Below are positions 9,580 to 57,928 of a stretch of 64,000 nt of DNA, one piece after another. The DNA lies in NCBI GenBank assembly GCA_008632985.1, contig QPGO01000038.1, positions 397,939 to 461,938 of the forward strand, read 5' to 3'. The stretch's first letter is position 1; every line of letters begins with the position of its first letter. The notes under the pieces are model-generated. The model worked only from the letters and a program-made list of their open reading frames with translations, ran no database searches and was not told where the DNA came from. The DNA comes from Psammoneis japonica (Eukaryota). A program made the translations under genes and the position numbers.

Positions 9580-10476
9580 AGTGACTTGTTAACGTAGAAG
9601 AACGCGCCGACCCTCTCCCACCGCACTTTCAAAGCGCGAGCGTCAATCATTCTGACACAAAAGCATGGTTTTAGTCGGTGTTTTGTCTTTGCATCCCTGC
9701 TGAGCAGAATAGCATGGTTTTGAAATAACCAACAAAAACGACAGCTCCATGTACCATGTAGAAGTGGAGAATGAGAAGAGGGTAACGTAAGTTTAGTCAG
9801 AGACTTTTATAGAACCATAGTTCCTTTATTGCGAGAGGAAGTAGACTATAGTCTAGTGTATTGAGAGGCTCTCTACTCTCTCTAGAGAGCTAACCTTAGC
9901 TCTTTTCTCATGACGCGTGGTCCATCTGCCTGCAGCCAGAAGGAATAGGGAGTTTTGCGAAACGCCATTGCAAGTGGCACAGCGACAAAACCTGCTTCAA
10001 CAAAGAAACAAAAGTGCCACGTCGCTCGGTCTCTCGGCGCCACCTCACCAACTCACAAGGAACAACATAAAACATACGTGGTCTCATTTATGGGCGTTCA
10101 AGTTAGTTTAGATGTGTTTCCAATCATTCACAAGCTTTTTCGCTTCTTGATATTCAATTTGATAAGGAGTCGGTCACGAATCGAGTCATCGACCGAGCAT
10201 TGACATTGTTCGCAGATGCTGTATCGTGCCACTCACGTCTTCAATTCACAAAAGTGTGCGTGAGAGAGGATGTTTGAATGTTGCCCTCTTCGGTCACGAA
10301 TCAGGGAGAAGGTACAGTATGATACCGCGTATTGCTCGTTCGTTAATCCTTGAGCCCCATTTTCTCTTTGCTGCTGAGGCATTTGCATCGTTGATTGCGA
10401 ATTGCGACCGCCACACTTTTTTAGTTCTTCTTCCAACCAGTCGCAACTTGAACTAAAATCTTGTGAAGGGAGCAAC

Positions 10477-12955
10477 ATGCTTCTATCTGCTCTTGTTTCT
10501 CTCTTGTTATTGTTACCCCAGTGCTCGGGTGTGGGACTCTTGGCACAGCTGTTTGGCCATACTCGTAATGCCAACGGGGTTTCCTTTCATCCCAATGCCA
10601 GCCGGCTGTTATCGTGTGGTAGCGACTGGACTGTGCGACTATGGGACACTCAAACCTTTGAAGAGCTCGAAGTTTTGCGTGGACACGAGCTTCCGGTTCG
10701 GGCTGTATCTTACAGCCCCGATGGCAAGTGGTTTGCGACTGGATCAGAAGACACGAATGTCAAGATTTGGGATGTATTAAGCTTGCAGGTTGTTCGCACG
10801 CTCACCGGACACGAGGATTCAGTTACGTCTTTGGCATGGAGTCCCGATAGTACCAAGCTATTATCGGGAAGCGATGATGATACGGCTAAACTATGGGATC
10901 CAATAAATGGAGGCGAAGCGATACATTCTCTGTCTCATCGCTCAAGGATTACTGGATTTTCATGGCACCCCGATGGAAGCTCCTTCGTGACGGGAGGCTG
11001 GGATGGCAGAACGAGAATCTGGAATGCGACAACGGGAGCCCTCACACTGTCTATTTTTGAGGGGAACAGTAATATTGATGATGTTACGTTCAATCGCGAC
11101 GGAACGCAGATTGCTGTCAGTTATAACGAAGCCATTCGGATCCGTAGCACGGAAACGCTCGCGTTGATATCGTCTTTCCAAACCGGGGATATTCGTCTGG
11201 TCAACAGCGTGGTATACAGTCCAGACGGCCAAACCTTTGCTACCGGAGGCGCCAGTCGGACTGTCAGACTATGGGATGCCACAACTTTTGAGCAGTTACA
11301 GACGGCAGCCGTACAAGGTATTATACCTCAGCTACAATTCAGTCCTGATGGCAGACACCTGGCGGTGGCGTGTTTTGACGATTCTGTCTATTATATGGAC
11401 CTGAACGAGAATGCCACACCCGCTCCAACCCCAAACCCTCCCGCGCCTGCGCCAGCATCAACGGTAGCAAAACGATTTACCGGGCACACGGGCAACGTCT
11501 GGAGTGTTTCGTTTAGTCCTGATGGCAAATTTATTGCTTCCGGCTCTGTGGACAGCACGGTCAAGATTTGGGATGCAACTGGTGAAAATACTTCGGCACT
11601 CCAAACGCTTGTCGGGCACACCAACGGTGTTGCATCAGTTGCTTATAGCGAAGATGGTACGAAAATTGCATCTGCCGGGGGCGGTGACTTTGCCATTCGG
11701 GTCTGGTCGACCGAGTCATTCGAAACGATTCAGGTTCTTACTGGGCATACCGGTGCTGTTTATTCGGTTGCGTGGAGCCCGGATGGTACCAAGTTGATTT
11801 CTGGAGGTGCAGATGACACTGCCAGAGTATGGAATCTTGCATCTGGCCAAATACTGTACACAACGAATGCTGGTTCACGCGTTTCGGGTGTTGCCTGGAG
11901 TCCAGCAGGCGACAAAATAGCCACAGCTAGCTTCGACGGCAACACTCGTGTCTATAATGCGGATACGGGTGAACTGTTGTGGCGGGTCGTTGAAGGCCTT
12001 GTCGCTGCAGACAAGGTTTATTCAGTCTCTTTCAACACCGACGGAACACATGTTGCCAGTGCCGTTGACACTAGTCTTACTATTCGAAACTCGGATGCTG
12101 GAAACCTTGCTCTTCCGAGAATGTTTGGTCACAGATTCGAAGTGCGATCCGTGGCCTACAGTCCGGACGGAACACGTCTCATTTCTGGGAGTGTTGATGA
12201 AACTCTCAGGATCTGGTAAGTCTTGCCCTAGAGTACAATGTTATAGGAAGGATTCTTCTCTATTTTCTAATTTTTCTTTTTTTCTTCGATACTTCCTTTT
12301 TGTTAGGGATGCTCGAGTCAACAACCACAACTACGCTCTGGAGACATTGTCAGGTCACACAGCAATCGTCAGGGGCGTGGCGTTCAGTCCCGACGGAAAG
12401 TATGTTGCCTCTGCAAGTGATGACGGTGTCATTATGTGGGAGCTCAAAGGAGAAAGTGTAGCAGCAACGGCTCCACCAGTTACGGGAATCCCTACAACGA
12501 GTTCGCCAGTTGCGAGCCCAGATACTCTTTTTCCGACTGTCTTTGCGCCAACGACAACGCCTCCCGCAGTTACGGCTGGTCCGGCGTCGAGCATGCCAAG
12601 TGCTAGCTCCAGTCCATCCCTTGCTCCGACCGCATTAGCCTCGCCACCCCCATTGACCGCCGCCCCAACGACGACGACAGCAGCCCCGTCTTCCGTAACG
12701 ACAACTACTGTAGCCCCGACGGTATCAACCACATCTCCACAGATGACAGCAGCACCTACGCCAACAACGACGTTGGTCCCGACGACACTAGCCCCGAGTA
12801 GTGTATCGGCAACTACACCGCTTCCTTCTGAAGCTCCAAGCGATGGTGGTGGTGGTGGTGGAGGAGGAGGAGGAAATAGCGCTGCCCCATTGTTCAGAAA
12901 CCTTGTTTGTGTCAGCCATGTCGTGGCAGCCTTGTCCTTGATGCTGTTCGTATGA
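10477..12955 (+). CDS. Secreted, probably GPI-anchored tandem WD40 (about 14 repeats) protein; exons 10477-12215 and 12307-12955
   Basis: Signal MLLSALVSLLLLLPQCSG; many GH..V..V.(F/W)SPDG..WD repeats; intron gtaag(12216)..ttag(12306) restores IWDA; then PT stalk, poly-Gly, NS and a hydrophobic C-terminus. Confidence 0.9.
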
Positions 12956-13109
12956 GCTGAAGCGATGGCGTTCTAGCGTAACTTCTAAAAAGGGAATCGA
13001 TTTATAATCACTAGATTCCGTCGGCTTGACTTCTGTTTCATCGCCTTTCAATGTGTTGATCGACAGCATGGTTTCAGCTTGTCGAACAAGTTTAGTGATG
13101 TGGGATACT

Positions 13110-14750
13110 CTCACACCAGTTCGGCTCACATGTCTGGTCATTTTGGCGAGCACACATTGGCAGGTCTTCCCTCCGCGCCATTCTCGTTCCCTGCTCTAGC
13201 TCTGGCAGCTAGTGGCAGGGCCCAACACAATTGTGCAGTGCACCATGTTGGTTTGGCATGAATTGAATGATGATTGTGCATTGATTGCAGGAAGAACTTC
13301 ACTTGGTTGGAAATTTTCTCACTGTCATGAGAACATTCACCGCAGCCATGGTGGTTGAGTGGTGGAAGAGTCTGCTTTAATTTCAGAAACTGTTTTTGCC
13401 AACACACCCATTGTTGCCCATTGCATTTTTTGTTGAACACTTGTGTTGTGTGACATTTGGCTGCATTCCAGAGAGCTGGCCAAAACAGTGGTGCTGACCA
13501 GATTTTAGAATGGGTGCAGTGGCACATTCTCTGGTGGCTCCAATTGACCAATGCAGAACACCAAGTGCAACAGCAACAACAAAGCTCAAATGCACACCGC
13601 CAAAACACTCCACTTGGGCTGCACAACAATTGTGCCACAGAGAGAGCAGGCCAAGCCAGCAACTGAGTTTCAGAGCAGGTGTGAGAAAAAATGCTTTCTC
13701 TGGCAACTGCAGCTAACAAAGGCAAAACATCAAGTGCAACACAGCAAAATGATCATTTTGTTGGCACCCAGCAAGTGAACATTGTCAAAGCACACAAAAA
13801 TCAAGCAGAGATGTTCCAACCCAGGAGTTCACAAAATGTGCAAGTGTGTCTTGTGCTAATCAACACAATGCAAACAAACAATTGGGTGGTCAAAGCTGGA
13901 GAATGAAATTGCAAATGAGAGATTGTGCCAGGAACAAGCACCTCACAACAAATGAGCATTTTGTGAGCACCGCGCAAATTCGTTCAAAGGCAATGATGAC
14001 AAACAGCACTGTCTGCAAAGCAAGAAACAAGGAGGGTTGGCTTTGCAAAATGGTGATGGCAGCCTGTTGCATGGTGCTCAGCTCTGCTGTGTTGCGCTTG
14101 TGTGGCCACTTGTTGGTGTCACAAAGCAAAAGCTGGAACACCCTCAAATGGCCTCTCACGCTTTTTCTCTTGTGACAAAATGACAACCTTTTCCCATGAG
14201 GACAAGCACAAAACAGACATCTTCATTTGTTTTGCTGGAGCAACAAAAATGCTCAGCCATTGAAAGCGAATGAAGTCGCCCTCTGCGTGGGGCGCGGGGC
14301 CAGAGCCAGCTCGCACACACCTGTGGAAAGCTGAAGAGCTCGAGAAATCTTTGAGTGTCTTTGCTCCCCACATCCATGAATCCTCTCTGTTGGGAGGAAC
14401 ACAAAACTGCATTCACATTTGCCATGGTCAAAAAGTGCTGAAAACAATGACTTTTGTGCGGGGAGAGCGACAGAGCTCTGCTCGAAGGCTCCCAGACTGT
14501 GCCCCTCTGGCGGCAAGTGAGTCAGGAGGAGGCAGCATTTCTGAGCATTTTGGGGCACCACCCTGCAAGCTCCCACAGTTTTTTTTTAATTGTTTGGAAA
14601 CTCACAGTGTCCTTTCATTGGCTGCGACTTCAGTGTCAGATTCAGAATGGAGCTGGAGCCGCGCTTCCAGTTGTCGCCACTGCCAGTGGTCGGTCCTGAT
14701 GGGTCGCACGCGTCTGCTCGCTCGTGCGGTCGTTTTCGCTCACCAGGGAA
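13110..14750. other. TpA/CpG-depleted, TpG/CpA-rich degenerate tract A
   Basis: About 7 TA dinucleotides in ~1.6 kb by manual count, all YTAR; few CG in 13200-14250; translations within the tract lack Tyr and are Cys/His rich. Confidence 0.9.
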
Positions 14751-15140
14751 GGCATAAGGGATCGTTTGTCATAAGTCATTTCGCTTTAGACATATGTATG
14801 TCTACATGAAATGCCAGTTTCAGCATAAGTATTTTAAATCATATATCACCTTTTCCGCGAATGAGAATAATGATCATGTCTTGCTGTTTTTCGGAATGAC
14901 TTCAGGACATTTCATTCGTTAAGTAAATACTAAATTACGTCGTGGCGATAGTGCGAATGTGACAAATTAGTCAGTCACAATAAAAAATGATGTTGTGATC
15001 ATTTATCAAACGAGAATTCGAGAGTCTTTCGAGACCACTTCGTCAAATCACTTCTCGTTTCTCTCACAAAAAAACAAAATCATAAAGAGAGAACACTTAC
15101 GAGAAACCCATAACGTTGACTCTTCACTTTTTAGACAACC

Positions 15141-16468
15141 ATGCGTTTCCTTTCCCTTGCTTTCCTGTTGGCCGCTTGCGCCATTGGCGTCAGTGGATCG
15201 GTCGCTGAGGACAACAATGCCTCAGTAAGTGCTACATGAAAAACGGAGTCTTTCTCATATTGTATTATCCCCGTTCTCATTTGCATTCCTTGCTCGCCTA
15301 GCAGGTGCAGCTTGAAGACCTATATGAAGGTGGTCCTGTTGAAGAAGAACAAGATGGCGCTGTCGTCTTGGAAGGAGACGAGCAAGAGCATCGGAATTTA
15401 CGACGTACGCGACCCTCTCAAAGGAATAGAGGTGTCTTGCCCAAAGGTGTCAGAAAAGTGACGAATTCCGATGGCACGAGCACCTATATAATGAGTGTTT
15501 ATGTCTGGTACTGGTTGGGGGCGAAAGACTTGTGCATCAATCCTATCGAGTGGTGCAACTCTAAAGTTATCGAAGAGTTTGAATTCGCAAATTTGTACCA
15601 AGACGAACCTGATGCGAGTGCGGTCTACGCAATGGTGGAAGCTGGGGCCACCTGCTGGGCACAGGCTAAGTCCCTCACAAGGCTGAACGCCATGGTTCTT
15701 GGGCAAGCCGAACTCACCGTCAACCAAATAGGACGTATCGGGCCAATTCCAGAAGTCAATTTCAAATCGAAGTTGCACACGTGTACACTGTCTGTGGCAT
15801 TCGCCCGAAGTGAGTCCGAAGCTGCAGCTTTCTCCCAAGGGACAGCTGGTGCAGCGGTTGAACCGAATGCAATGTGCCAAAACCTCCCGCGTAATCACAG
15901 GTGGATCAGGCATCGTATGTGTACCGAAGGATATGGGGAAGTGGAAGCTACTGGCGAGGCTGATGCTGTCAGCACCTCTTCCGCTTTTTCCCGTTCGCTT
16001 GCAGAGTCCAGAAATTCTCAGCTAGTAAGCGTGATATCCAAAGGCAGGAGTATCAATTTCTTTGAGGCTGTTGTGGTAGGAGGAGCGTCGAGCTTCACTC
16101 AGTCCAGAGCCAAAACGGTTACTTCTGCCATCACAGACGTCGTCGCCGATGCAGATGGTTACACTTGGATTCAAAATTGCATAGAGTGGCTGGTGGATTT
16201 CTGCGGTAGCCACCCGTTCCCTTGGTGCAAGCCAGTTAAAATCGACGAGTATTGTAGAGATGCAGAAGCGGAGGCCTATACCAGGGTCAGCGCCAAGGCC
16301 GACGCTTTTTCCAAGGCTGTTGCGGCATCATTCGGAAACCTCGAAGTTTCAGTTGCATTGAACGCGTATTTGAAACGCAACGAAATTACGGGTGCAATTG
16401 ACATGGGCTTGAACAAGGATTCCGGTTTTTCTGCAGGAGTCGTCACCACCTGTAGAGCTAAGACCTAG
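15141..16468 (+). CDS. Secreted Ala/Ser-rich Cys-containing protein of unknown function; exons 15141-15224 and 15305-16468
   Basis: Exon 1 MRFLSLAFLLAACAIGVSG is a signal peptide; phase-0 intron gtaagt..gcag (80 nt); acidic pro-region ending RNLR. Confidence 0.85.
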
Positions 16469-17359
16469 AAAGAACGATGGAATGCGTTGAGCGAACAGGG
16501 GCGATGAGGTCGTCTTTTCGCTGGGTGTTGAACGATTGTTTGGAAGTGCATGTTTAGTGGAGATCATTAGTAAAAGATGGAGTTACTCAAACGGTCTCAT
16601 CGTGAGTGACACAAGTTGATGGGAGAAGATGGCTTGAATATTGTCTCGCAAATTGATATTACGTAGTTTAGCAAGTATTTGTCTGTGTTCAGTAGTGAAG
16701 CTAAACTTAAAACTCTAGAGTATTGATAACCTTAGGATCTGATTGTGGGCAGTCCCGATCCAACGACCGCAACAACCCCACAGCGACGATGGCGATGGTG
16801 TTTGTTTGCTGTGGGGGAGTGTGTGGAGGCGCCGATGAGATGCGAAGGGCTGCAACATTCTAGAGGTGATTGCTGGGTGACTGTAGGAAGGAATCTCCAT
16901 ACCTGTGATACCGTATTTCATGGCAAGGAGGATCGAATGGAAATAGAGCAGTCCTGGCACTCTATGTTTACTCTCTAGTAGCTGCTCTAGAGTAACTACT
17001 CTCTAGATGGTAGAGGCTCTTATTGGAGAGTAGAACACCTTCACTTTATCAACCGTATACCGGTACGTCGTCCGGAACCACGATTCACAACCGCAGTAGA
17101 GGTGATCACGGGAATAGATACATCGACTGGCATAATGAATATGATCATAATTTCCACGATTGAACAGCTCACACAAATCCCGGATCGGGCAAGATTTGGC
17201 TCCAATGAAGCTGCACCTTCGACAAAAGAAACTGTTCGGCAACTCTTTGCACCAACAAGAGTCCCATCCTTTACAATGCCATGCCTCTTTGACAATCGCT
17301 TTTTCAAGAGATGTGTTGAGAGGGAAGTGCGCGACATGCAACATTCGTTTGCCCCGCCG

Positions 17360-18400
17360 ACGATGACAATCATTGAAACATTGATGCTCCTTGTGTGGTG
17401 CATCATTGTCACATTGACTTCGCTGCCACACTTGGTCCTGCATGAGGAAAATGTGTTTAAAGCAACACAGGATGGCGATGCAACCAGGGTGCGAAGCAAG
17501 CAATCTCGGCATTCAAGCCGTGTCTTGCAGTGGCAGCGGCAAGAAGGGTGGCAAGAAGGGTGGCAGTGGTGGCAAGAAGGCTGGCAGCGCCAGCAACAAG
17601 GAAGGGTGCATCACCGTGCCCTCTGCGACAGCGGCACCGACAACTGGTCCAACGCCAAAATTTGCCCTTGCACCTCCATTGACAGACCCGATTTGAGTGA
17701 CCTCATCGCCGTCACAACGTCCAACGTCTTTGCCGACACCTCCTCCAACACCGCCACCGTCACCTCGTCCTGGTCCTCAGCCAACACCACAGCCATCACC
17801 TCATCCCACTCCTCAGCCAACACCACAGCCATCCCCAACTCTGACCACAAGGCCCGCACCCAACCCTGCATGCCCTCCAATGCCTGGACCAACAACACCT
17901 CCCCCTGCAATGCCGATTGTGCCACTGATGCCTTCGCCATTGAGCATTTGAACCTAACTGCCAACTCCTCAACTGTCGCTTCCTCCACTGACATGTCCTC
18001 ACACTTTAAATCCAACAGAAATGCCAGTGCCCCCACCAGTGCTGCTGCTGCCAACAAAGCAACCGACTGCCCCTCCAACTCCAGCACCGATGCCTCCACC
18101 AACTCCAGCACCGATGCCTCTGCCAACTCCACCTCAAACAATGCAACCAACACCCCCACCAAATCTAGCACCATCACCACCACCCACAAAAGAGAGCCAA
18201 CAGCTCCTCCAACACCACAGCCAACCCCACAACCAATGACGGAACCAACGTCCAGGCCTGCAAGCGCTCCAACCAATGCTCCGACGGGGGTTTCTGACAC
18301 AATCTCCTTCAAAAGCACCATCCAAATCACCTTCTGCAGCACCGAGTGACATGCCGTCATGGTTGCCTTCCTTCTCATGGAAGATTCTCGTTGCATCTCA
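17360..18400 (+). pseudogene. Decayed silaffin/mucin-like cell-wall protein gene (RxL, GKKGGKKG, Pro/Thr repeats)
   Basis: Hydrophobic N-terminus, SRVL, SGSGKKGGKKGGSGGKKAG, then PT repeats across frameshifts with Met/Leu at expected Thr/Pro positions. Confidence 0.7.
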
Positions 18401-19310
18401 TGACAGCTTGGATTTGGGATGCGCGCAACACAAATGGTGATGCCTGGCATGATGATGTTGTTGTTTGATTTTCTCAAGGCAAGTGCAGCTGAGTGGCTGA
18501 AGGAAAAAAGGAAAGGACAAAAATCACACCACACATGATGATGCTCAGCAGTGGAGCAACAGGTGTTGGAGGACAATCTTGGGATTTTTGGCCAGCTTCG
18601 TTGGATTGAGAAGTGAGCCCAAATGGAGCAGCCATGTCAAGCCATGCAGGGGTGAGGAAAGCACTCATGATGCTGGAGCAACAGAGCTGCAATGCTGAAG
18701 GAGGACAAAAGAGCTCATCCTCAAAGTGCTGCTGCTCCACCTGTGGATTGAACTCACAAATGCTGATGCCAGATCAGGCAAGAGGCTTGTTGTAGATTTT
18801 CAGATTCTGTGCACAAAATCACAGAACCTTTCATGCATGGCAAATGGCAGCAACAAAAGGCCAAACACGATGGGGGGTTGCTTCACCCAGACATTCAAAT
18901 CCATCAACTCTGATGTCAGTGACAAAATCAGGGATGCATCATTGAAGATTCAAGGTTGGTGAGTTGCATCACCATTTTTTGAATGATTTCATCATTTGCA
19001 CATTTGATTGAGCCCCACCCTCCTGTGCCATCTGTTGACAGGGGGTGGACAATCCTGAAGACTTGCAGAAATGGAGAAGGAATGGGAGCAGCTGAAGCAA
19101 CAAGCTGGGGCTGCAGAGACAGACACCAACATGGATGGCTTTTTGTTGGTGGGAGATGCACCCAACTCAGGCTCCACAAGTGATTCTCAAGGTTCTAGAA
19201 GAGACACAATGGAACATCAAGGATCATCATTGACTTTTGCTGCTGTCGAGCAACTGCCATCACTGTCACTCAACATTGTGATGGGTTCAAACCAAGATGT
19301 CTCCCATCAT

Positions 19311-19557
19311 TCTGATGCACCAGCTCCAGAAGGAATGAACATGGAGATGCCAGCATCCAACTGCAGTGCACAACTTGAACAGCAGAAACAAATCCTGACA
19401 TTGGCACAGTGGCGCGCACTTCAATGCAGATGCCAAATGCACTTGACCAAGAATCTTGTGGAGTCAAGCCTCAACATGCAAGTGGCTTCTTCAGATGCAT
19501 TGGCTCCAGAAGGAATGCACATGGAGAAAACAGCATCAAACTGTGCAGCGCACAATG
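19311..19557 (+). repeat. Diverged ~65-bp direct repeat pair, 180-bp period
   Basis: tctgatgcaccagctccagaaggaatgaacatggaga (19311) versus tcagatgcattggctccagaaggaatgcacatggaga (19491). Confidence 0.85.
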
Positions 19558-21189
19558 ACCTGGCACCACTCTTGCTGCTGCATTAGAAAGAAACACCAAC
19601 AGTGGCAGTGGCACACATTTCAACAATGATGCCAAATGCACATGGCCAACTGTCTCACACCATTTTGCATGTTTCTTGTGTGGAGTTCAGACTCAAGAAT
19701 CAAACAACTTCTGATGATGGCAATGAGCACCACACAGACACACCCAGTGACAAGATCACAGGAAATCCCAAATTGCCACCTCAAGCTGCTTTGGAATCAA
19801 CAAAGTCGCTGGCATCCAACTGCCATGACATCCAGCTGTAGAAGCCACTGGCAACAACTCTGTGCTGCCATGCATGAGGCAACCATGAGTCAGCAAACTT
19901 GCCAGCAGCACATGCTTTGAGTGTTTTAGAAGGGTTGCAATGCCAAAACAAATTTGCAACAAAATGATGGCAAGCAAGCCTGTCAAAGACCCAGAGAAGG
20001 GGTGTCTTCCAAGTCCAGCAATGCCTGCACATCTGTGCAGAAATTGCCAGAAATGCAGACAGATTGTCTCTGCAGATCCTGCGTGTTCTGTGCACGCTTG
20101 CTGTTCAACAGTGCATTGATTTTACAACAGGCTGCAAATTGGATTTTGTCTTGTTCATGAGCAACATTGTTTGCACCATGAGGTGCTGGGGTTTTGTGTG
20201 CCAAATTGTTGGGTTCTGTGACTGTGTGGTTTCTGTGCAGGTGCCGCACACCATTTTGTTCCACATGTTGGTCTGCCCATCCATCCATCACTTCTGTCAA
20301 TTGTGTTTGTGCAGTGGCTGTGCTGCCCCAAAAGTCCTTTTTCTCATTTGTTGTTGCTGGCCATTGTTGCAGCAGACATTGCCTGCCATGAACATGCAAG
20401 AGCTCTGGCACAGCCACACACATGTGATTGCTGCTGGCTGCCATTGTGCCCATGTCTCCAGAGGTGGGAGAAGTGGACAAGGGGAGCCACAACACCAAGG
20501 CAGTGGCTGCATCTCTTCAACTCCTTTTTGAAGAATTTTCAGCGGACAGATGATGGATGCTTGGCTCCTCATGATGCAGACCCCTCTTCATTTCAGGACC
20601 AACGACCACCAATGCTGTTGAAGCCTGTGTCAAACTTTCTGAACACCTTGCAGCTGCCTGAGCAAGATGCCACAATGGACTTTTAACCTGAAAACATTGG
20701 TGATGCCATGGATGAAAGCAGAAAAAAAAGAACGAATGCCCTGACAAAACATCTGAGGGCAATGATGAACAGAAACAAAACAGAGCCAGACAATGAACCA
20801 TCAACAATGCCAGAGCATGTGGCGCACACTTGCCTTGTCAGTGTGGTTGATTTTGTGTGCTGGCCAAGGCAACACCAAGCCAGGTGAGAAAGTTCCTTGG
20901 CACTTGCTTTGCCAATGCAAGGTCAAAAAACCTGGCATTCTTGGAGAAGCAGCAACATGCAAGGTGACTGTGCTGCAGGAATTGAAGCCTCAAACACTGC
21001 AAACAAAAGCAACACATGAACAACACCCACCAATCTGATTTGCACACTGGCGCCCATTGTCATGACCATTTTGTGTTGCAAGCAAAGCCATGGTTGGGGC
21101 CCAGTCATTCATGGAGTCAGCACTTGAGAGGGTCAAGGACAGAAGTGACACAGGAGAAAGCAAAGCTGTGTGTGCTTTTTGGTCAGTGA

Positions 21190-21430
21190 GTCAGTCTTTG
21201 GACAATTCACTTTGGGCATTGACCGATGGTGAGCTTGCCCAACTGGCCAATGATGAGCTTTCAAAAATTGGGTTGGTGGAGACCAATCAGCTGTGGATGG
21301 AGTGGTGCACACAGGGTTCTGCAGGCTTGTCCTGTCTTTTGTGAAACCACCGAGAGGCCATTGAGATGATCCATGAATGTGTCGCCACATCGTTCACCAG
21401 TCTTCAGACCACAGGATGGGATGGTGGTCA
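21190..21430 (+). pseudogene. Fragment of the C-terminus of a bacterial-type FAD-dependent oxidoreductase (protoporphyrinogen-oxidase-like, PRK07208-type)
   Basis: LWALTDGELAQLANDELSKIGLV..VDGVV..RVLQACPV..IHECV..LQTTGWDG matches the recalled family pattern LW..SDEEL..LA..EL..IGL...VDG.VVRVPKAYPV..IREY...LQTIGRNG. Confidence 0.65.
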
Positions 21431-22005
21431 GGGTGCCTCCTTTCAAGCCTCTGCCTCCATCTCCACAAAGCTGTCCAACCAACAGACAAAACGGCAGACA
21501 CACCCGGGCTTGGTGCCCACAGCAGCTCTCAGTCGTGTGCATGGAGATCTCCTCTGGCTGACGGGGAAGCTGAGCCGTGTCCCAAGCCACGCAGTTGCTT
21601 CAGCTGCAGACCCGGTCCTCCGGCGTGGTATCCGAAATCATGGGCTGTTTCCCAGTGCCGGAAGTGCCCCCCGCCCCGGCTCATCATGAAGACCGGCTAC
21701 ACCCGCTGCCCTTCCTCTGGAAGATGCCGGGCGAAAACCCAGGCAGAGATTTTGCATTGAGCATTTTAGAACTCAAATCGACCGTGGTTCGGCAAAAACA
21801 GTCAGTTGAAAATGTAATGACACATTATAAAGCACCAATTAAAAAGCAATTGCGGCTACAACAAACCGACAACCGCAACATACAACACACAACATTGTGT
21901 GCTTTCTTTGGTTGACAGCACACCGGGGACATTAGTCCGACTAGTTCTTCATAGCACAAACTGAACCATCCCTCGGTCAACCAAGGGCACCATCCGCGCG
22001 TGGTT

Positions 22006-24471
22006 TCACATCTTATCCCAAACAAGAACTGGACAGAAGACACCTCTCTTTGCATGGACTGGAATACAATCTGAACACCTTGAAGGATGCGCCTTCACAC
22101 CTTTAGCTTTACGCACGGTGAAAGTATCCTGTGAAGGTTTCTGCGCAAGGGACGCGACCGTTTCGCTTGACAAACTCCCTGCCCAGACATAGACTTCATC
22201 AATGAGTCCTTCAAAGTTTTCATGTTTTGAGAGGGCAGGGTCGGTATAATTCAGGTTGGTACTGTAACCCAAGCCACCAACACTAACGGCGCCTGAGAGG
22301 GCAAAGAATAAATAACTGTCTTTTCCTTCGACATGCGTTGGGACCTGCTGCCCATTCACATACAGCTGGACTTCCGAGAGTCGACAATTGTTTCTTGGCA
22401 TAGAAACGGCCACGTGTTGCCACGCATTGGTAGCCAAGTTCAAGCTCTTGTCAATTGGAACCAGCTTCATGTTAGATACAGTTGATTTTGCATAAACCAC
22501 AGGGACGCCCTCATCTAATGTGAGAGTGAAAACGAGATTCCTGTACCTGAGGTTCCCGTACCTCGCCTCTCCAAAATATATTTTCAAGATGATGCCATAG
22601 TGAAGTAAAATCTGGTTGCGCGAGGAGAGTGGGGTCTTGAACCAGAGTGCATAGGATACTGCGTCACCTCCACTGTGGGGACCACGTCTGTATGATGATA
22701 TCAAGCAGACAACGTTATGCATCAGGATTTATCATCCGCACACGTTCTGATTAAAACTGAAGTAGGAGCGAATCTCTTCACTTACCCATGAATAGCAACA
22801 CAACTGCTAGATTTGAACTCCGCTGCCTTTCCCTTGATGCCATCATCTCGAAGGACAACATCGCCAACTTGCGCATCATATGTTTCTATATAAGACAACA
22901 CGACGGCAACCGCAGAAAAGGTTAGAGACAAGAATGCAGATGTTGCAGAAGACGTCAGGTAATACTTACGGCCGTATGCGCCCGTATTTTGGAAAGAGTC
23001 CCAACATGTTGTGCCTCGTATAGTGATCTTACGTTGTACAATTGTTTCCTTGTACTCATCATGCCGCAATGCTAGAACCGGTCGATCCGACAAATTAAAA
23101 AGCTCGTCAAATGAAAAGTGAATCATTGGTTGGCTCCGGTCAAGGAGTTTTAAGGATCCCTTTGATTCGATCCTAGTCTTGCCTCCCGACTTGTCGATAA
23201 TCAATTCTCCATAGAATTCATAGTTATTATTTTGTGATTTCGTTTCACTCCAATTTCACTGTACTGAGTGAACTTGATCACATCATTTGAAACGTCAACC
23301 GTGATAAAATTCTGAGCTAGAAGTCCTCTCGACACCACTTGAACAGCATTGGATTGGTCGTCTTTGGTAGCAGTATTCGCGTGGACCTAGGAGTACAAAA
23401 ATATGAAGATTGGTATCAGGTAAGAAATTCAGGTTCTTTGCAATAGAATGGTGAACTTACTTCTCCTGCTAAATATACGTCAACGTTATAGTCTCGCATC
23501 GCCTGGAAGAAGCCAGACGATTCGGCTCCATCCATAAACTGAACGCTGCATTGTATTTTCCCTACGGGTTGTTAGTATCGGCAAATGGGCCTGCACAAAG
23601 ATATGCTTGATGGTAGCATCCTTACGTGCTTCGCGCAGGACGTTCTTAAACCACTTCAAGTGTTCACCGGACACGTTGCACGTCACTGTCCCTTCTCCTC
23701 CTTGACCTTCGCGCAACCAATGAAAATCTTCGTCTAGCTGTTCAAAGGCGTCCACAGTCACGAACAGCACATTCTTATGCCGATAAGCATAGGATGTGTT
23801 CTCGTAGAGAGTCCCAATGGGATGGGAGCTGGCAGCTAATTATCACAAAGAAGAAGTGGAGACAAGAGATGAGACAGAAGCGAGAGACCAGAATAAGCAT
23901 TTTCATTCTTCTGCAAAGACACGTACTTCCGATGTTTCGACGACGAAACTGCCCGTCTGCGTCGCGGTTGAATCCCTTGGTAAAGGCGAAAGCCTGGTAC
24001 TTCATTTGTACCTCTCTCACCCTTCACCCAAGGATTCCCACCAAGCTCATGATCACCCACAGCCATCAAAAGTTTGGAAAATCCGGCCTGTTTAAATGCA
24101 AAGTTCATTCCTTGGTAGCATCGTTCTCCAGCTAGGTGCACAGACTGATGCGCCGTTTTTACGTTAAGCACATCTTGAGTTTCCTGTTTGTACCACGTTC
24201 CGCCGTTCGAGTCACCGGATTAAACCACTAATTCTCCTCCGTAATTTTTGTGGATGTACTTTGTGTTTTCACGTGTCGGGAGGTGACGTTGAAATGATTT
24301 GGGATCGTCCTCTACAATCCAAATCGGGTGCTTTACGAATGGCTCTACACTATGCCAATCCGCAATTACAATGAAACGCCATGGATCTTCGCTCTGAACC
24401 TGCCAGCAAAATGTTGAGAGGAATAAGAGTGTCGTTGAAATGGAGAAGAACATTGTGCAACAATTCCTCAT
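22006..24471 (-). CDS. Secreted calcineurin-like metallophosphoesterase + C-terminal LamG/concanavalin-A-like domain (multi-exon, several frameshifts)
   Basis: Signal peptide, RFIVIADWH, MAVGDHELG, FVQAHLP; LamG WQHVAVS..LYVNG..FEGLIDEVYVW; intron about 23388-23460. Confidence 0.75.
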
Positions 24472-56743: not shown

Positions 56744-57928
56744 TTACACAACACCGTCGGCCCTTAAGTTCCCCTGAATAAATTTCGGTTCCTCCATTGT
56801 GTCAGGGCTTTTTCGTGAAAACGTCACAGTCGGGAGCAATCCCATTTCATCTTGGGCATAGCACAAGTACTGAAGAAAAGTTTTGGACATTTCAAATGGT
56901 TGGTACAGAAATGGGTGCATTTCATCAATAAGAATACAGGGTTGATCTGCTCCGCGAGCTTCGGCAACGCCAAACATGCGTTCTTCGAACCCAAAGGTCA
57001 AAGTGATGGCCTAGAGCCACGAAGCACATTAGTGATTTCCCACAGCATGTTTGATACTTCTTCTTCATAGTAGAGTGCAACATCAGCAACGGTTGTCGGT
57101 TCCGATCGAACAGCTCCTACTAAATTAAAAACGGCATCCAAGACTGTTTGCTCCCACTGCAAGAATCGTTTCGAGGCATAAGAGTGAGGGCCTGAAGAAA
57201 AGAATACAATTGGCGTTGGCATATGCATCACCTATTGTATACTCACCATAGTCGCTTCCATTCCCTGTAGAAACCAGTCTTGCATCGAATAGCGTTTGAT
57301 TCTAGTCGATTTTCAATAGCTCCGCACCATTTCCCGCATGCTGCACACTCTCCGGCCCACTTTTCGCTCCCATCTCCAGCAGTGCCAAGATTCACAGAGG
57401 TATCTTCATCAGAGTACCAGAAACTTTAATACCTGGTATGAGAACTTGCGTCATGGAGTCCCGAGCATACCCAAAGTCTTTTAGGACAGCTTCAATGTTT
57501 CCGCATTCCAATCCGCCAGAAAAGAATACTAAATCTTCTCGGCGAGATTTTAACCCCTCGGGCAGATTTTTGAGATACTCCTTTAGTTGAGTGGGAGGGA
57601 TTGTAATGTAGATTGGGAAAGATCCACTGGCATCAGCTGGAATGTCCTGATCCGGCGTCAGAACCATGTCATCGCCTTGACCCATGCGGACAAGAGCGTC
57701 TGCTACGGTTGTCGGTCCTTCCAAAGGCTTGACAATGACACAAGGTCCATCTTTTGCTTTTTCAATCTCTTGCTTTCCTGACTGTAAGAACGCTTGATAC
57801 TCCATCGTCGCTCTGTTGTCAGACCATGTTGCCTGCAACTGACTAGTGCTGGAGGCGGTCCAACCCGCCGCGGTTGATGCGGGCGAAAATCCAGTAGCCT
57901 CTTGCAACAGAAACGCCGCGGAAANCAT
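56744..57928 (-). CDS. Plastid-targeted ketopantoate-reductase-like protein (At1g16080-like family); intron ~57157-57246, frameshifts, N at 57925
   Basis: ATG-F-SP presequence; PIYI, R.DLVF, GKW, WE..V.....LVGA, TV.DV...Y..EV and F..EER. Confidence 0.6.

Follow-up and report, generated by a model that had tools for sequence, protein, structure and literature searches.

What kind of process could strip two delimited pieces of chromosome of nearly all their TpA and CpG dinucleotides (hereafter TA and CG) while filling them with TG and CA is the question raised by a 64,000-nucleotide stretch of Psammoneis japonica DNA (assembly GCA_008632985.1, contig QPGO01000038.1, positions 397,939 to 461,938 of the forward strand), referred to below as the window. 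Between positions 17149 and 21628 only 12 TA were found where 181 would be expected (Poisson P = 6.9e-61), and inside this interval, from 18425 to 21350, 16 CG were found in place of 162 (Poisson P = 6.3e-49), with expectations derived from background densities of 40.4 TA and 55.3 CG per kb. Expressed as observed/expected ratios in 1-kb windows over 18501-21500, TA falls to 0.02-0.06 and CG to 0.09-0.17, while TG rises to 1.85-2.16 and CA to 1.70-2.03. The borders are abrupt: on the left, a TA at 17148 is followed by the next one only at 17272, and on the right, the TA at 20684 is followed by another only at 21629. A preliminary description, made by reading the sequence, had reported about a dozen TA in roughly 4.4 kb, about 15 CG in 18450-21300, abundant TG and CA, and sharp boundaries. 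Its counts were reproduced almost to the letter, with 16 CG found in 18450-21300. The observation is confirmed as real and far beyond chance, and its extent had been understated.

A three-state hidden Markov model (HMM) recognized exactly two TA-purged regions in the entire 64 kb. The first (domain 1), defined by TA positions and the HMM and to which no strand applies, spans 17149-21628 (4480 bp) and comprises a CG-purged core at 18425-21350, with TG and CA at 116.9 and 124.4 per kb, which the HMM draws as a zone poor in both TA and CG at 18426-21559. The core is bordered by a left margin at 17149-18424 (17149-18425 in the HMM) that is poor in TA and retains CG (5 TA, 50 CG), and by a right margin at about 21351-21628 with zero TA and a CG density that is normal again. 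The second region (domain 2) covers 13211-14754 (1544 bp; 5 TA versus 62 expected); its CG-purged part lies at 13186-14266 (7 CG versus 60 expected) and its margin at 14267-14754 is again poor in TA with CG retained (1 TA, 24 CG), the corresponding HMM segments being 13213-14261 and 14262-14754. In both domains, therefore, a CG-poor zone is nested within a broader TA-poor one. The domains are separated by 2.4 kb of normal composition (14755-17148, plus strand) holding a gene for a secreted protein, and the CG-retaining margins of domain 2 and of domain 1 (the left one) both adjoin this central segment. Ranked by length, the top seven TA-free gaps of the window (388-945 bp) all fall within the two domains, and no gap elsewhere exceeds 171 bp. 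The single domain placed at 17150..21620 by the preliminary description is thus real, but it had been overlooked that a second domain exists and that the CG-poor zone is nested.

One view of such a locus would be that only CpG decay is special here, the TA poverty being a by-product of low complexity or of Pro/Thr-rich coding. The conversion of CG to TG/CA through 5-methylcytosine (5mC) is indeed established biology, and the left margin of domain 1 is Pro/Thr-rich repeat DNA, with a Pro/Thr/Ser-rich repeat of 12 and 36 nt across 17149-18424. However, TA is purged beyond the repeat, across the high-complexity core and in domain 2, and the TA-purged zone is the broader of the two. In addition, the neighbouring gene encodes a comparable Ser/Thr/Pro-rich tail at 12500-12955 in which 15 TA are retained; this density is normal, in contrast to that of the similar repeat at 17500-18350. 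CpG decay as the sole special process is accordingly regarded as very improbable.

A second possibility is that the composition is an artefact of base-calling, of polishing, of library chemistry acting on modified DNA, or of a chimeric assembly. The preliminary description had considered that the bias might be missing from raw reads. It is present in k-mer (Logan) contigs from a DNA run, which match the domain with 0-1 differences at a depth of 62-75, equal to that of the flanks; moreover, a 5.3-kb contig starting at 20899 crosses the right boundary into the next gene with zero differences. The assembly itself may have been built from this run, the sole DNA run to contain the stretch, which leaves some room for an artefact; yet the run differs from the assembly at 17123 and 19480 and is thus not letter-identical to it, and the context rules described below are too specific for random error. 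An artefact is very unlikely. As to the two differences, every contig of the run has G at position 17123 where the window has T, and G at 19480 where the window has A, so that CG in the run stands against CA in the window inside the purged core; assembly errors or polymorphisms would each account for them.

If the missing dinucleotides had been converted into TG and CA, losses and gains should balance. In the core, TA and CG together lost 87.9 per kb while TG and CA gained 94.6 per kb. When all TA and CG of the flanks were converted in silico, CA and TG reached 122.3 and 120.2 per kb, as compared with 124.4 and 116.9 observed, and the correlation with the core over the 16 dinucleotides was 0.96 for the converted flanks versus 0.69 for the unconverted ones. 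Pyrimidine-purine (YR) steps have a density of 249.2 per kb in one core and 254.0 in the other, versus 241.7 +/- 6.7 in 100 background windows; this density would have dropped to about 213 per kb if one third of the removals had been transversions. Being unchanged, it indicates that TA and CG were removed by transitions only. The gains are also nearly equal for the two products (TG 45.2, CA 49.3 per kb), and this symmetry points to a process acting on double-stranded DNA and not to the editing of one RNA or cDNA strand.

The contexts in which TA survived reveal what was attacked. Of the 17 surviving TA, 13 are in YTAR (R, purine; Y, pyrimidine), a context that accounts for 16% of TA in the flanks (p = 6.6e-8), and none is in RTAY, which makes up 31% there. 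The YTAR survivors comprise TTAA, TTAG/CTAA and CTAG, and survival calculated per strand is 0.00 for TAT, 0.03 for TAC, 0.12 for TAG and 0.18 for TAA. All three survivor classes are covered by a single rule, under which A becomes G in 5'-TAY-3', whichever strand carries it: RTAY, exposed to it on both strands, has 0 left; YTAY and RTAR, exposed on one strand, have 4 left of about 127 expected; and YTAR, exposed on neither, has 13 left of about 39. These survivors are not simply fresh mutations, since TA arising at random from TG/CA would be in YTAR in only about 23% of cases.

The rule also makes a prediction about the products. Under it, YTAY becomes YTGY and RTAR becomes RCAR, so that YTGY and RCAR should outgrow YCAY and RTGR. 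The observed gains were 37.0 per kb for the former pair and 15.4 for the latter, as against 35.8 and 14.5 predicted by a TAY-directed model and 25.2 each by an unbiased one. The share of YTGY+RCAR in the sum of the four products is 0.600 (312:208; 0.641 and 0.584 in the cores taken separately). Simulations on 95 background windows gave 0.599 +/- 0.021 with TAY-directed conversion and 0.515 +/- 0.023, with a maximum of 0.572, without bias, the same share being 0.525 +/- 0.027 in untouched background.

This product skew bears directly on the possibility that the domains were shaped by selection, that is, that they are functional DNA or a selfish element avoiding TA and CG (as targets of a nuclease, of a methylation or modification system, or of TA-targeting transposons), in which ordinary mutations became fixed. 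Such avoidance would be compatible with a nearly complete purge ending at sharp borders, with survivors falling in palindromic classes (YTAR and GCGC), as would be expected for recognition sites avoided in double-stranded DNA, and with diverged copies that are likewise free of TA and CG over the 91 nt visible. Yet avoidance alone predicts no skew among the products, while the skew found fits a directional A>G change at TAY quantitatively; ordinary mutations would have included transversions and lowered the YR density; and the searches revealed neither a coding function nor one as an RNA family or a repeat. Selection is for these reasons considered improbable.

The surviving CG have a context preference of their own, 7 of 23 being in GCGC versus 4.4% in the flanks (p = 4.4e-5). 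Per strand, survival is 0.257 for GCG and nearly uniform in the remaining contexts (ACG 0.067, CCG 0.068, TCG 0.064). It was also observed that CG survivors cluster in GGCGC/GCGCGC motifs, as in TGGCGCGCAC, the clusters being located at 18420-18427, 19410-19417, 19547-19551, 20820-20825, 21048-21053 and 13969-13975. Judging from these motifs, they may represent the protected binding site of a protein and not an enzyme preference.

Copies of the domains offer another view of the same changes. An internal duplication lies within 19310..19649, where 19310-19363 pairs with 19490-19543 and 19407-19450 with 19606-19649; its 139 aligned columns contain 3 TG<->CA swaps and 2 CG/CA differences. A diverged contig covering 18193-18373 shows 18 visible differences, of which 16 are transitions, and these 18 include 2 TG<->CA swaps. 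Such swaps would arise if each copy had resolved an ancestral TA or CG on its own, or if TA and CG were short-lived intermediates. Some bins of both domains show extra summed depth (up to 121 versus a baseline of about 65), and parts of the domains are matched at 85-95% by contigs with a depth of 28-33, which together indicate that diverged copies are present in the same DNA sample. The repeated pieces are 17177-18104, about 19060-19115, 20600-21125 and 13170-13835. In one diverged contig, sequence homologous to 16538-16791 is joined to homologues of 17177-18104, meaning that the gene-plus-margin arrangement was itself duplicated. Within the window, no duplicates of the domains were found by blastn, and a purine/pyrimidine-coded seed search for duplicates returned 3 and 9 seeds versus 0-9 in shuffles, which again amounts to none.

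Another possibility is that the composition was imported. The domains would then be inserted relics of a mobile element or virus that either had been edited extrachromosomally, in the form of RNA, cDNA or an episome, or stemmed from a donor with the same bias. The sharp borders can be read as insertion boundaries, the extra diverged copies of both domains in the DNA sample would fit a mobile origin, and most of the purged DNA is without a host-like coding signal. Against this, editing of a single strand should be asymmetric, whereas symmetry holds for the TG/CA gains as well as for the contexts of the survivors; neither terminal repeats nor target duplications nor remnants of a transposase or reverse transcriptase were found; and a CG-poor zone nested in a TA-poor one, with CG-bearing margins beside genes, resembles the effect of local chromatin and not of an insert. 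An imported composition is consequently seen as doubtful. A direct repeat of GGCATAA (14751-14757 and 17129-17135) was considered as a target-site duplication and dismissed, a chance match of about 5% being calculated for a 7-mer. Its right copy is separated from the beginning of the purged DNA by two TA, one of them in RTAY.

As to what the purged DNA encodes, transitions leave the purine/pyrimidine skeleton intact, and codon periodicity was for this reason sought and scored on that skeleton, where coding DNA has a median score of 6.2. Period-3 signal was strong in 17400-18600 (score up to 38.1) and moderate in 19051-19800 (4.6-5.8), with none in the rest of domain 1 nor anywhere in domain 2 (score of about 1); hence most of the purged DNA is without coding signal. 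Its periodicity and repeats give the left margin of domain 1 the appearance of an extant or relict mucin-like coding region. Searches of Pfam with 104 open reading frame (ORF) fragments taken from the two domains, each 45 aa or longer, and with 12 frames read through stops, gave low-complexity or chance matches only, none at cut-off, and neither reverse transcriptase nor integrase was detected among them. The three plus-strand read-through frames of domain 1 had, as their best match in a phmmer search of PDB, a low-complexity one with E = 0.087, and Rfam gave 0 matches with E<=1 over 12500-22500. A word-indexed protein search with the ORFs 19059-19583 and 16991-18346 retrieved no homologue, and a full HMMER search with the former against 1.84 billion representatives had 0 hits. 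These protein blanks are weak evidence, because the collections seem to be without proteins of this genome, a housekeeping aminotransferase having a best match only 54% identical and its nearest named homologue, from a pelagophyte, being 35-37% identical.

Some further features were noted. The hexamers GCAAGT (18479-18484, preceded by AAG) and GTGAGT (18959-18964) are the forms that the local donor consensus GTAAGT would be expected to take after the purge, and a pyrimidine tract followed by AG occurs downstream of them at about 19020-19041. By eye, 21066-21690 (plus strand) had seemed to resemble the C-terminal part of an FAD-dependent oxidoreductase in which Tyr had changed to Cys; this reading was supported by none of the searches and is rejected.

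The evidence assembled above inclines us, with modest confidence, to the reading that the domains were rewritten in place by two context-specific transition processes. The ancestral state would have been two delimited chromosomal domains of ordinary composition. A first process would then have changed A to G at the A of 5'-TAY-3' on both strands over the whole of each domain, with the loss of about 97% of TA; restated as T>C at R-T-A, it would suit a mispairing modification of thymine. A second process, C>T at CpG and weakest at GCG, would have eliminated about 90% of CG in the nested core. Its simplest source would be the deamination of methylated CpG in a silenced core, which would be sufficient for the CG part. 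Since both transitions yield TG or CA, these two dinucleotides would be doubled, and because deamination of methylated CpG would be confined to silenced DNA, the margins beside the neighbouring genes would keep their CG. We infer that the origin is mutational and not selective, that the changes were made in situ, that they were targeted to domains, for which repeats, chromatin or transcription units would be candidate determinants, and that enzymes were involved. It is a bolder and decidedly tentative proposal that the locus records a eukaryotic system, linked to defence or heterochromatin, that would hypermutate adenine (A>G in TAY on both strands) and CpG cytosine, erasing TA and CG from targeted domains.

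Several points weigh against rewriting in place. The evidence base is a single locus in one 64-kb window, and the contig support comes from one DNA run, possibly the assembly's own source. The direction of change is deduced from composition, and the baseline assumes an ancestor resembling the flanks. In this regard, an excess of the GC dinucleotide in 18425-21350 (75.2 versus 53.7 per kb expected) is left unexplained by the conversion model, which gives no account either of an excess of GCTG/CAGC (35 versus 16.7) or of a low TC (47.9 versus 64.9) without a matching fall of GA in the same interval; the ancestor may have been unlike the flanks, or a further process may be acting. The internal duplicates are not transition-rich overall (16 of 29 differences). 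Four of the seven surviving GCGC fall in two CGCG clusters, which makes local protection an alternative to enzyme preference. The diverged copies have zero TA and zero CG in the 91 nt visible, and no unmutated relative was seen. Finally, we know of no enzyme that makes A>G changes in eukaryotic nuclear DNA.

With these points in mind, the interpretation advanced in the preliminary description can be divided into two parts. The turning of TA and CG into TG/CA by transitions on both strands holds, on the strength of the mass balance, the YR density, the symmetric gains, the contexts and the swaps between copies. A dedicated silencing system targeted to the locus, repeated or silenced sequence as its substrate, and the involvement of 5mC are conjectural. 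The same description had held that homologues equally poor in TA and CG would speak against it. This is what the 91 nt show, a pattern that would also arise if all copies had been mutated.

The gene lying exactly between the two purged domains (about 15142-16468, plus strand) starts with an ATG at about 15142, ends with a stop at 16466-16468 and is interrupted by one 76-nt intron (15226-15301; GTAAGT...TAG). Its product has a signal peptide and belongs to no Pfam family. The summed contig depth over the gene, 180-536 versus the baseline of about 65, indicates that it is a member of a multi-copy family, and a metagenome scan with the protein found no relative. Further to the left, 10378-12955 (plus strand) appears as a gene for a WD40-repeat protein, which carries on in a second frame with a stalk rich in Ser/Thr/Pro, 11 consecutive Gly and a hydrophobic tail; the change of frame could be due to a frameshift, to an intron or to the presence of two genes. 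The lone N of the assembly in the window, at 57925, is within a minus-strand ORF.

How does this locus compare with known systems? The CpG decay caused by 5mC in vertebrates, plants and methylated transposons has in common with it the loss of CG and the symmetric gain of TG and CA, both found here, and could fully explain the CG-poor core. However, 5mC decay spares TpA, whereas at this locus TA was purged more strongly, and over a wider zone, than CG. In Pucciniomycotina, the hypermutation of repeats is reported to occur strictly at TCG (Horns et al. 2012, PMC3318451). The likeness lies in C>T changes at cytosines preceding G, and the difference in that ACG, CCG and TCG are here purged equally (0.064-0.068) with only GCG lagging behind. 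Given that these three contexts were lost alike, a TCG-restricted hypermutation of that type is not what took place. The string 'TpA' occurs 0 times in the same text, which in the portion available mentions no TpA change (PMC3318451).

Regarding selection on RNA, RNA viruses and cytoplasmic RNAs are described as depleted in CpG and UpA together (Simmonds et al. 2013, PMC3829696). In comparison with this suppression, the depletion at this locus is strand-symmetric, has observed/expected ratios of 0.02-0.17 and affects DNA mostly without coding signal. The CpG/UpA suppression in RNA is reportedly mild and attributed to selection on RNA.

Editing enzymes provide a third group of candidates. ADAR deaminates adenosine to inosine on double-stranded RNA, with U or A as the preferred 5' neighbour and G as the preferred 3' neighbour, and APOBEC enzymes prefer TC or CC. 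The editing of retroelements by APOBEC consists of C>U changes on cDNA (PMC4866542). Retroelements edited by either type of enzyme resemble the present domains in having clustered C>T/G>A and A>G transitions fixed in genomic copies; the marks differ in being strand-asymmetric and set in other neighbouring contexts, while those found here are strand-symmetric and follow TAY. The symmetric TG/CA gains, the palindromic contexts of the survivors and the failure to find reverse transcriptase or integrase in the domains do not correspond to an edited retrocopy. By analogy, adenosine deaminases of the TadA/ADAT type would come closer in specificity, as a T(U)-A-pyrimidine preference resembles the TAY rule: bacterial TadA acts on U-A-C-G of the anticodon loop of tRNA-Arg. 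In contrast to what would be needed here, these are RNA enzymes, and we know of no natural TadA/ADAT enzyme that acts on chromosomal DNA.

The full-text literature searches, within the material they returned, found no account of a joint purge of TpA and CpG or of A>G hypermutation of DNA domains. To our knowledge, no process removes TpA from DNA, and A>G at TAY has no precedent in chromosomal DNA. The closest parallel is repeat-induced point mutation (RIP), known from Neurospora and other ascomycetes, which converts CpA to TpA, thereby creating TpA and consuming CA/TG. As in RIP, the changes found here constitute a DNA-level, both-strand, transition-only and dinucleotide-specific hypermutation of delimited stretches, carried nearly to saturation. 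Unlike in RIP, TpA is destroyed and CA/TG are the end product, there is an A>G component, and the organism is not a fungus. The core composition (TA 2.4, CA/TG 124/117 per kb) accordingly runs opposite to the RIP signature of TpA gain and CpA/TpG loss. RIP is further confined to duplicated sequence, takes place before meiosis and requires a homologue of a RID/DNMT4-type cytosine methyltransferase; as regards duplication, the summed depth hints at extra diverged copies of parts of both domains, and none was found within the window. Diatom DNMT4 enzymes have been reported as RID-related and of unknown function (PMC9998398); provided that the organism is a diatom, they could be responsible for the CG part.

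If the TAY rule reflects an enzyme, adenine in chromosomal DNA would be subject to change by a natural activity, with consequences for how non-fungal genomes are defended, for the long-standing puzzle of why TpA is under-represented and, possibly, for base-editing tools. Whole genomes can be screened for the signature, as stretches in which the YR steps are all TG or CA and the survivors are YTAR and GCGC. Should an adenine-hypermutating system prove true, it would be the first natural pathway of DNA adenine hypermutation, a mirror image of RIP operating outside fungi. In such a case, the adenine component would be the unprecedented element, added to two that are already known, the context-specific hypermutation of delimited DNA exemplified by fungal RIP and the universal decay of CpG.

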